A stretch of DNA of 64,000 bases, from the NCBI GenBank assembly GCA_044892505.1, contig CM097884.1, positions 120,714,001 through 120,778,000 of the forward strand. Direction: 5' to 3'. Position numbers and translations under genes: made by a program. Below the pieces are notes generated by a model, which did not search any database, was not told where the DNA came from, and saw only the letters and a list, made by a program, of their open reading frames with translations. This document shows, one piece after another, positions 53,668 to 56,018 of the stretch. This DNA comes from Schmidtea nova. Its lineage: Eukaryota. The first letter of the stretch is position 1, and every line of letters begins with the position of its first letter.

Positions 53668-56018
53668 TGTGTGTCAGTTTGTTGTGTCTTATGCTTGACA
53701 CAACCTTGTATACATTTGAAAGCTTTATCGCCGAACCTGTCGTGATAAATGCATTTATCAAGGATTTGGCAAGATGTTGACTTATCGCGCCAACTACATC
53801 CTAAATGGCAGAATCTTGCCTTATTTCCAAATTTGTGATGAAAACGACACAAATTTCTATTATTAGAAGAAGAGCGTGAGGGTGAGCGTCTACGATTATA
53901 ATTTGGTGCTACATCCCGAGGTTGTTTAGAAGACATCGAGCTCTCGAGTTCTGTTATCCTTTTAGTAAGCCCGGTGATGGCTGCTATTAAGGCTTCTTCC
54001 GTAGAGGGTTTAATTGATGAAGGAGAAGCCGTCACGGTAGGTTGGTGATCTACCTGGATCGCGTATGCAGATTGTGCACCAAGAGGAACTACTTCGTTTA
54101 TCTTGTCGGCCATTTTTGCTAGCTTAACAACGTCTTCAGTGGAGGAAAGAGCAAGAATTTGTTGAGCATGTGGTGGCAAAGCCGAAAGAAAGAACTGTCG
54201 CAACAAATTCTTGTCAGCTGCTGCACCAGAGTGCATTTGCTCTAATTCAGCAATAGCATGCTGAAGAAACTGGGATGGTTTTTTATTTCCCAAAGTTTGG
54301 TTTTTGAAATATTTGGTAATAACTGCAGCAGTTGGTTCTTTAAAAATGTCGAGGAACGCAGTTTTTAATTCCTCGTAAGGTTTTTTGAAAGAAGGTGAGG
54401 AAGTGCGGAGAATCACTGCAGACAACTTACTAAGTATGTTAGGTGGGATTAATGGTAAAATACGACAATATTTATCTCGAGATAATGTAACCCCTATGCC
54501 CTCCATTAACCATGTCAGTGGGGAGTTATTTTCGTCTAGAAAATACTGACATAGGTAGGTGGACCTCTGTTTAGATGCTTTCTCGCTAGTGCTGCCTTTC
54601 CTTTGGTCAGCCTGGTCATTTTCCTGGTGATCGCTCTCGGAGTCTGAGGCGCCCCCGAGAAGAGGAAAATAACCTTGTATCACCCTATTGTGGGTAATTT
54701 TGTGGGTGGACAATAAATCTTGGTCATCTAAGCGATGTCCGCTAAAGTATAATTGACAATGGGCACTAAATGATATGAGGTTACGTAAAGTGTCCCTTAA
54801 ATCCCTTACAGTAGAGGTAACAGCAAGAAGAATGTGGTAGTTTTTGCCCCCCACGGCAACAAAAAGAGAGAAAGGCGTGTTTATATAAACTGTGGGCTCC
54901 GACGCGCCGATACCCCCCCCCGCGCGGCTAGACATGGCGGGAATATTAAACTGTCCAAAAACGGGCAGACATGAGTTAAAAATAAAATTTTTATAAAGAC
55001 TTGCGTGATCGAGTTGCCTTGGAATGAGTGGATAGAACATTGTGTGGTGAGGATGGGAAATCGGAATCCGTTTATATTTCGATTTTTCGTGAGAGATAGT
55101 GACGAGTTTCTTTATTCGTGTATTATAATCTGCTCTTTCACGAATTATTTGATGACAATGAGAGAGATAGCAAAATGCTTCAGGATAATTTTCCTTAATT
55201 TTCAATGATGTGTTATAGGACCCGATTGTTTCATTGATATTACCCGTATCTTTATGGGCACTTGCAGAATTTGAATGAGCATCGCTAGAGATTGGCTTGA
55301 TTTGATTAACGCATTGATAGTGTAATATAGCATTCGGTACGTTTTGTAATTTCTCGAGAGTCTTCCCCATATTTGAGTGTGCCTCGGCGAAGTTCGGTGA
55401 TACTTTAATGGCTTCTCGGTAATGATTTAAGGTGCTCTGTAAATGGCCTTGCAATTTCAACATACTAGCCAGGTTGGAATGGGAAACGATAAATTCTGCA
55501 TAAATCTTCGATGCTTTTTTATAGATATTCGTTACCTCCTCATTGAGACCTTGTTCCCGTTTAAGATTGGCCAAATTGTTAAGAGAATCTTTTTCTTTCA
55601 TTGCCTTGGCTAGATTGCAGAATGCATCAGGAAAATTAGGTTGTAAGTCGATGATTTTGAGATAACTGTCAATAGCCTGGTCATAGAGACCCTGTTCATA
55701 ATAAACAAAAGCAAGATTCTCGTGCAAAATAGGATTATCAGGATCCAAAGTTAATGCTTTAATGTAAGCTGCAACGGCACGATCGAATATCCTTGCTTCT
55801 TTGAAGACGAGCCCAAGATTGACATAAGCATTTAAGAAATTAAGCTCGAGAGTGACGGCCTTTTCCAAGTGATGAATTGCGAGCCAAATCTCGCCTTGTG
55901 CTTGAAAAATGCACGCAGCTGCAAACGCCAGATGTGCATTAGGTGCATTTACACTGCCCCCGAATTGGAAAACCGGTTGATTGCTCCCGAAATTGAATAC
56001 GAACGGTTCAGCTGCCAC
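53658..56018 (-). CDS. gag: Chimeric FxFG - OGT TPR - ubiquitin-like - Gag ORF (786 aa open)
   Basis: Gag part (54650-53658) has PYEELK, LGNKKPSQFL, LLRQFFLSALP, LAKMADKI and two C-x2-H-x9-C-x3-C knuckles. The upstream modules are listed separately. Confidence 0.92.
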   Translation of the reverse strand: MAAEPFVFNFGSNQPVFQFGGSVNAPNAHLAFAAACIFQAQGEIWLAIHHLEKAVTLELNFLNAYVNLGLVFKEARIFDRAVAAYIKALTLDPDNPILHENLAFVYYEQGLYDQAIDSYLKIIDLQPNFPDAFCNLAKAMKEKDSLNNLANLKREQGLNEEVTNIYKKASKIYAEFIVSHSNLASMLKLQGHLQSTLNHYREAIKVSPNFAEAHSNMGKTLEKLQNVPNAILHYQCVNQIKPISSDAHSNSASAHKDTGNINETIGSYNTSLKIKENYPEAFCYLSHCHQIIRERADYNTRIKKLVTISHEKSKYKRIPISHPHHTMFYPLIPRQLDHASLYKNFIFNSCLPVFGQFNIPAMSSRAGGGIGASEPTVYINTPFSLFVAVGGKNYHILLAVTSTVRDLRDTLRNLISFSAHCQLYFSGHRLDDQDLLSTHKITHNRVIQGYFPLLGGASDSESDHQENDQADQRKGSTSEKASKQRSTYLCQYFLDENNSPLTWLMEGIGVTLSRDKYCRILPLIPPNILSKLSAVILRTSSPSFKKPYEELKTAFLDIFKEPTAAVITKYFKNQTLGNKKPSQFLQHAIAELEQMHSGAAADKNLLRQFFLSALPPHAQQILALSSTEDVVKLAKMADKINEVVPLGAQSAYAIQVDHQPTVTASPSSIKPSTEEALIAAITGLTKRITELESSMSSKQPRDVAPNYNRRRSPSRSSSNNRNLCRFHHKFGNKARFCHLGCSWRDKSTSCQILDKCIYHDRFGDKAFKCIQGCVKHKTQQTDTQKN
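54651..54872 (-). other. Ubiquitin-like domain (74 aa) ending LLGG, directly before Gag
   Basis: FSLFVAVGGKNY...STVRDLRDTL...QLYFSGHRLDDQDLLSTHKI...FPLLGG aligns by eye with ubiquitin QIFVKTLTGK...[20 protein letters not shown]...LRGG. Confidence 0.85.
55026..55913 (-). other. OGT: Captured intronless fragment of O-GlcNAc transferase (C-terminal TPRs to the HPHH motif)
   Basis: AQGEIWLAIHHLEKAVTL, KEARIFDRAVAAY, VYYEQGL, DSLNNLAN.KREQG, AHSNMG, KDTGNI and HPHHTMFYPL are colinear with metazoan OGT. About 21 aa are missing between KEK and DSLNN. Confidence 0.93.

Follow-up and report, generated by a model that had tools for sequence, protein, structure and literature searches.

Retroviral gag-onc fusions hold host sequence transduced in the sense orientation, as does the element described here, and LTR elements are already known to capture mRNA. 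In the LTR-mediated animal retrocopies described by Tan et al. 2016 (PMC5131818), pieces of spliced mRNA from several parent genes lie in LTR elements, have gone through further rounds of copying, and show short shared sequence at their joints. For maize Bs1 and the additional ORFs of plant elements, host sequence is described (PMC7264820) as having entered an LTR element in the sense direction, and functional capture is described in orchids (PMC9289625). The TART and other telomeric elements with nxf2, aub, and piwi, as presented in PMC7785250 and PMC13534243, have captured one chromatin-linked host gene repeatedly and hold it in nearly all copies. In planarians, the Burro giant gypsy elements are described (PMC6431247) with extra host-like domains in the polyprotein frame, including a Ubi/SUMO motif, and cytopathic pestiviruses with cellular ubiquitin inserts are described (PMC8310069) with a ubiquitin-type domain ending in GG in the polyprotein and host mRNA sequence upstream of it. 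The element analysed here likewise holds in-frame pieces of spliced mRNA from several parent genes, has gone through further copying, has captured one host gene repeatedly and keeps it in most copies, and has a GG-ended ubiquitin-type domain with host mRNA sequence upstream of it.

The window, by which we mean the whole analysed stretch of 64,000 nucleotides from Schmidtea nova, contains a gypsy element with a piece of host OGT in the front end of its Gag. Our reading, to which we assign a probability of roughly 0.6, is that a piece of OGT-B mRNA was captured by template switching into the front end of Gag, is translated with Gag, is cut off at the terminal GG of a ubiquitin-like domain (Ubl), and is under selection for its reading frame only. 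In the retrocopies of Tan et al. 2016, as described there, the captured piece replaces the ORFs of an element that is non-autonomous, whereas here gag-pol is kept and the piece is part of Gag, occurs throughout the family, and has been taken up from one and the same gene more than once. TART and the other telomeric elements are non-LTR elements, and the TART nxf2 piece lies in UTRs, whereas the OGT piece lies in Gag; piRNA targeting and fast host evolution are findings on those elements. The transduced plant ORFs are described in one or few copies, in contrast to dozens here, which give no sign of selection on host function. Burro elements are described as longer than 30 kb with Gag N-terminal, unlike the present element of about 8.4 kb, in which the cargo lies ahead of the capsid and is traceable to recent host mRNAs. 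Pestiviruses are RNA viruses with a near-intact ubiquitin and a demonstrated cleavage, whereas here the Ubl is diverged and ancestral and the cut is presumed. A search of the main texts of open-access papers found no OGT-bearing retrotransposon, no repeated re-capture of the same gene inside Gag, and no GG-ended Ubl ahead of a capsid.

The preliminary description had placed the OGT segment inside a retroelement, and the structure bears this out: positions 49338-61467 of the minus strand form a single complete Ty3/gypsy element (Table 1). In a domain search, its pol has the order RT, RNase H, integrase, as in Ty3/gypsy; the protease was called by eye from the motif LIDTGS. The primer-binding site TGGTGTCAGAA, which we take to be of tRNA-Leu type, follows the 5′ LTR (57272-57262). 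Approximately 290 nt ahead of OGT are host FG-nucleoporin sequence, in sense and in frame at 85-87% identity, with 83% and 87% for the two halves in the window copy, from a donor that is presumably Nup153-like, judged on architecture. The window copy is broken, with a hAT element in the 5′ LTR, a hAT piece in the leader, and a stop in pol; the leader insertion is missing from the other near-identical mapped copies.

Table 1. Features of the gypsy element, in window coordinates
Feature	Position	Strand	Basis or remark
5′ LTR, split by hAT element	57274..61467	-	LTR comparison
3′ LTR	49338..50053	-	97.6% and 98.7% identity to the two 5′ LTR parts
5-bp target-site duplication AATTT	49333..49337 (second copy 61468-61472)	.	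Flank reading
Primer-binding site TGGTGTCAGAA and overlapping ATG 57273-57271 (putative Gag start)	57262..57273	-	
pol: protease-like, RT, RNase H, integrase	50245..53673	-	Single in-frame stop 50893-50895
Gag capsid and Cys/His-rich end	53658..54563	-	Weak DUF7041 match
Ubl, C-terminal LLGG aligned to terminal GG of ubiquitin	54651..54872	-	
OGT-B mRNA piece (host CDS 538-861 and 924-1501), late TPRs to start of catalytic region, in frame with Gag	55013..55913	-	Exon 3/4 joint 55860/55859; 63-nt loss 55590/55589
FG-nucleoporin mRNA piece, second half, sense, in frame	55931..56072	-	87% to host G000:C3:142.308 Mb
FG-nucleoporin piece, first half	57088..57228	-	83% to same host gene, G000:C3:142.308 Mb
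One-ended hAT fragment, interrupts leader	56073..57087	+	Window copy only
hAT element inside 5′ LTR, 8-bp target duplication ACTTATAG	57591..61060	-	

Several further features of the window were observed. A 981-bp tandem duplication with 100% identity (57443-59404) runs across the hAT end and the LTR and is either recent or an assembly artefact; a DNA-transposon-like ORF is split by the element (48947-49333 and 61455-62039); and a short palindromic MITE-like repeat family, with copies partly masked, occurs at 63143-63274 and 37727-37967. At the LTR ends of the family (window 57274-57560 and 49338-49620; L081:1308-1655; L095:1848-2327), at least two different frames of 95-160 codons are open in phase with the ATG of Gag: one has a Med26/TFIIS-N-like atlas lead (0.92), and the other reads MASNLENG. 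The LTR-end ORF gave no useful match in Pfam, and no donor for it was found.

The OGT segment proper (55913-55026, minus strand) comprises 888 stop-free nucleotides encoding 296 aa, from CIFQAQGEIW to HPHHTMFYPL. The colinear OGT similarity claimed for it is borne out by a match to residues 199-310 and 326-515 of the human OGT chain (E 6.5e-125), and OGT homology continues beyond 55026 to 55013. Non-OGT TPR proteins, which had been considered as possible best hits, are ruled out as the source, since OGT takes 16 of the 17 best PDB rows and the remaining one is a designed TPR protein. The 296 residues stand against 317 in OGT, so that the in-frame loss, estimated at about 21 aa, is exactly 21 aa, and the OGT-type TPR array is present but partial, minus these residues. 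Coverage of the GT41 profile runs from position 4 to position 41 of 543, in agreement with the described stop just inside the catalytic region, and the two catalytic lobes are not both present; among 71 GT41 matches, those to the second half (316-543) are confined to host loci. Separately, a broken fragment of the OGT catalytic region (L042, G000:C1:300657407-300658015) covers profile positions 128-286, further than any element insert. The insert is no separate ORF but the front of a Gag frame of 788 open codons (56024-53658) that runs on through the Ubl into Gag, a continuation that the preliminary description does not mention, and its product would be a Gag fusion rather than the suggested TPR-only product.

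In the genome, the two catalytic halves occur together in two OGT genes, OGT-A and OGT-B, both of which cluster with fluke and tapeworm OGTs (support 100/98). OGT-B (G000:C1:519.51-519.52 Mb) has five exons and encodes 1007 aa. The insert is derived from OGT-B: its DNA is 84-87% identical to OGT-B versus about 71% to OGT-A, and in the tree it clusters with OGT-B, with a branch of 0.63 versus 0 for the host. The joint between exons 3 and 4 is exact (host GAAAAG|GT..1785 nt..AG|GCGGTG; insert GAAAAG|GCCGTC), the GT-AG intron being gone, and older family copies also span the exon 2/3 joint; the proposed capture from spliced mRNA is thus upheld. The accompanying claim that the insert lacks introns holds as the exact loss of one intron but not as a general statement, because a single 1662-nt host exon supplies 834 of the 888 nt; exon 3 accounts for just 54 nt, and the mRNA origin of the window insert is therefore carried by the exon 3/4 joint as its one junction. 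A skipped exon, which had been suggested as a possible match for the deletion, is ruled out as the origin of the 63-nt loss, both of whose boundaries lie within exon 4. At three joints, short shared sequence was noticed by eye. Four sequencing runs, perhaps from the assembly's own material, show the 63-nt joint, even cover over introns, and no splice joint, and on the last two grounds we read them as DNA. As a side observation, a duplicate of the last OGT-B exon and of a GPCR-like ORF next to it lies at a distance of about 36 kb (G000:C1:519477651-519478394).

The OGT fusion is a property of the family. A search with a Gag 20-mer recovered 77 family Gag copies, 68 of which have OGT upstream of Gag (67 clear cases and one small remnant; by source, 58 from coordinates, 9 in fetched DNA, and the remnant). 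The other nine comprise two single deletion products and seven copies with neither primer site nor leader in the 4 kb read. The form with the 63-nt deletion occurs at at least 19 loci, 12 at 97-100% and 7 at 89-92%. By subfamily, the OGT piece spans CDS 430-1569, 488-811, 537-1147, 538-1501, 538-1898, or 1235-1898. Outside this genome, a weak search found two Gag relatives among 8000 scored candidates, both without TPR or GT41 domains. In addition, at least 16 near-identical truncated leader copies with a short OGT piece lie at G000:C2:449.3-455.7 Mb, likely a segmental array.

Identity to the host is mosaic, and reveals re-capture. Four copies have a near-host patch of ~330 nt within old sequence, two have fresh OGT sequence over CDS 1058-1898, and all 16 analysed copies of the young type hold CDS 1235-1898 at 98.6-99.3% to the host. 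Three separate recent re-captures, considered as an account of these types, were reduced to one: marks at 1515 and 1894 are common to the 1058-1898 and 1235-1898 types, and a mark at 1164 links the patch type to one of these two, which indicates one recent re-capture followed by deletion and recombination. A single copy without differences over CDS 934-1246 (L046) is likely, from its sequence, to represent a second event. The refresh patches are confined to one exon, so that RNA templates are indistinguishable from DNA gene conversion, and in the gag-pol tree the young subfamilies fall together, unseparated, in one open clade of 31 rows.

This pattern bears on the possibility that the insert acts at the RNA level, by anti-silencing or camouflage: small RNAs against the element would also hit OGT-B mRNA, so that a silencing factor declines or silencing comes at a cost to the host, and the frame would be kept merely because the piece sits in Gag. 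Retention of the same gene across the family together with its re-capture is what such an effect would predict, as is the indifference to which OGT region is held, any of which would suffice, and the 99% host identity of the youngest burst; the repeated capture of aub, piwi, and nxf2 by Drosophila telomeric elements, described as acting in this manner (PMC13534243, PMC7785250), and the repression of retrotransposon promoters by OGT described in mouse (PMC7322000) point the same way. We nonetheless regard it as unlikely. At the protein level, the captured part of host OGT-B shows no excess of change, with B-specific changes in 43 of 279 columns inside it versus 35 of 111 and 21 of 154 outside it; the window's subfamily reached at least 12 copies at 84% host identity; the mouse route depends on TRIM28 and DNA methylation; similarity to the second OGT gene is only about 71%; and many unrelated housekeeping genes were captured too. 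A related proposal, that OGT is standing cargo of an autonomous gypsy family, renewed from host mRNA as it drifts, with near-identity turning small-RNA defence on OGT or shielding the element and a cut at the Ubl making the cargo cost-free, also appears doubtful to us.

Under our main reading, in which the piece is translated with Gag, Gag would start at the ATG overlapping the primer-binding site, and any stop or shift in the cargo would then destroy Gag. This ATG and OGT share a phase in 46 of 52 rows, as do OGT and Gag in 52 of 60. Phase is kept in all or most copies for six 5′ and five 3′ joint types, some of the joints being TPR-to-TPR jumps, which preserve the frame of their own accord; for the oldest 3′ types it is kept in one of five decayed copies, though all enter the same spacer frame. 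The frame from the primer-site ATG through Gag is open in 12 of 16 copies of the young type, 1 of 4 of the patch type, 0 of 2 of the long type, and 0 of 12 of the window type, whose copies are closed by private lesions. Alternatively, the OGT piece could be untranslated leader, with Gag starting at the in-frame internal ATG ahead of the Ubl (54935), the open frame a left-over of captured coding sequence, and later patches arising by DNA gene conversion. The existence of this ATG, from which Gag could be made without cargo, the restriction of patches to one exon, and one copy in which the primer site is fused to Gag in a different frame are compatible with such a leader; but the preservation of frame at eleven distinct joints and across the 63-nt loss, the avoidance of stops, and the presence of the same upstream ATG in a long open frame in a sister family make it quite improbable. 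At one locus (L094/L131, G000:C1:93.20 Mb), the 18-nt tRNA-like primer site is joined directly to Gag, the entire leader being gone.

Selection was assessed with changes private to single copies as the neutral yardstick; for the window lineage, 6 multi-hit nonsynonymous (N) changes were set apart and 36 codons with conflicting states in host and older copies were excluded. Changes fixed in the OGT insert on the window lineage (33 N to 17 synonymous, S) do not differ from private ones (65:25, p 0.45), whereas purifying selection is evident in the capsid (3 N:19 S versus 83:31, p 3e-7), in pol (9:46 versus 217:90, p 3e-14), and in the Ubl with its linker (2:8 versus 47:13, p 6e-4). Nor are conserved OGT residues spared: changes affect 48 of 195 columns that are invariant in ten OGTs and 28 of 105 variable ones; of 14 invariant Asn positions, 4 are changed. 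The 136 differences common to the window's subfamily, on the other hand, include no stop. In neutral simulations the probability of this is 0.0075 at 100 changes and 0.0045 at 130, with 66-82 amino-acid changes expected versus 76 observed; with the 56 polarised changes alone it is 0.07, a weak result. Amino-acid change at the neutral rate combined with avoidance of stops indicates, from these sequence comparisons, that selection keeps the reading frame of the insert and not its OGT sequence. The pairwise host-versus-copy dN/dS of 0.33 was rejected as a sign of purifying selection: decayed copies with 4-6 stops give 0.25-0.31 by this method, and the measure is contaminated by host synonymous change and takes no account of transition bias.

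The preliminary description had offered two fates for the insert, a decoy or dominant negative for OGT and neutral cargo, and had named neutral divergence from host OGT, along with frameshifts in other copies, beforehand as telling against its account. Such divergence is what we find at the amino-acid level. A decoy would consist of the TPR piece, fused to Gag or released by a cut at the Ubl, binding OGT or its partners and damping O-GlcNAc silencing. The kept frame would suit it, as would retention of W and I in GEIWLAI, which correspond in position to W198/I201, described as dimer residues in PMC11145291, and TPR helices that are still predicted (mean pLDDT 82.5). Yet amino-acid change is neutral and leaves invariant sites unspared; the 63-nt loss removes the second helix of one TPR, with a fused 26-residue helix predicted in its place (pLDDT 66-78, pTM 0.51); subfamilies hold OGT parts that do not overlap (CDS 488-811 versus 1235-1898), leaving no region common to all; and OGT dimerisation is described as dispensable in mouse cells (PMC11145291). 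We thus consider a decoy highly improbable. Neutral cargo comes nearer, with the proviso that this cargo keeps to the Gag frame.

The Ubl offers a possible reason why Gag would tolerate such cargo. Its GG aligns to ubiquitin's own terminal position and is kept in 39 of 42 family copies, 5 of 5 copies of a sister family, and both of the 2 outside Gag relatives; the Pfam match to the Ubl is weak (E 8.5e-5, under cut-off), and the motif is LLGG, not LRGG. The sister gypsy family, with 56% Gag identity, has the same ATG and the same Ubl behind a long low-complexity front end without OGT (6 copies read), which implies that a tolerant front end predates the OGT capture. The LTR ends of the sister family hold pieces of NOMO1, PCMT, and histidine phosphatase in frame with Gag. 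Different sister-family loci (L124-L129, e.g. G000:C1:225.87 Mb, C1:516.71 Mb, and C2:252.76 Mb) have different host pieces, an exchangeable cargo in the LTR itself.

We therefore return to the reading given at the outset, which would proceed as follows. Reverse-transcriptase template switching likely copied spliced OGT-B mRNA into the element. Resident OGT sequence would then invite new switches onto co-packaged OGT mRNA, refreshing or extending the cargo, a step that follows the template-switch model described in PMC5131818. A host deubiquitinase or similar protease would cut after the Ubl GG and free the capsid from the upstream cargo, and the front end could thereby tolerate foreign sequence; pestiviruses with ubiquitin inserts, as described in PMC8310069, give a precedent for ubiquitin as a processing signal. 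The insert is thus likely a passenger clipped off at a ubiquitin-like cut site rather than an enzyme decoy, and the front end is likely a tolerant, cleavable Gag cargo bay, on the best reading refilled by template switching. Some observations count against it. No OGT-free lineage has been amplified, both clean deletions being single copies, and pure neutrality alone does not account for this. In addition, among the young subfamilies the largest (about 27 copies) is the one whose OGT is freshest, as RNA mimicry would also predict.

The family allows gene capture to be seen as a running process in LTR elements that still hold gag and pol, with one host mRNA in dated layers (84%, 90%, and 99%) in one Gag frame and with capsid and pol as built-in selection controls. 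For annotation of the genome, it carries a warning: dozens of OGT-like ORFs are element copies beside two real genes. The conserved Ubl-GG supplies a testable reason for the cargo tolerance of the Gag front end. If small RNAs tie the insert to OGT-B, the finding would bear on O-GlcNAc silencing of transposons outside mammals. The standing-cargo proposal, if true, would make this family the LTR-element counterpart of TART-nxf2 and place O-GlcNAc in flatworm transposon control.
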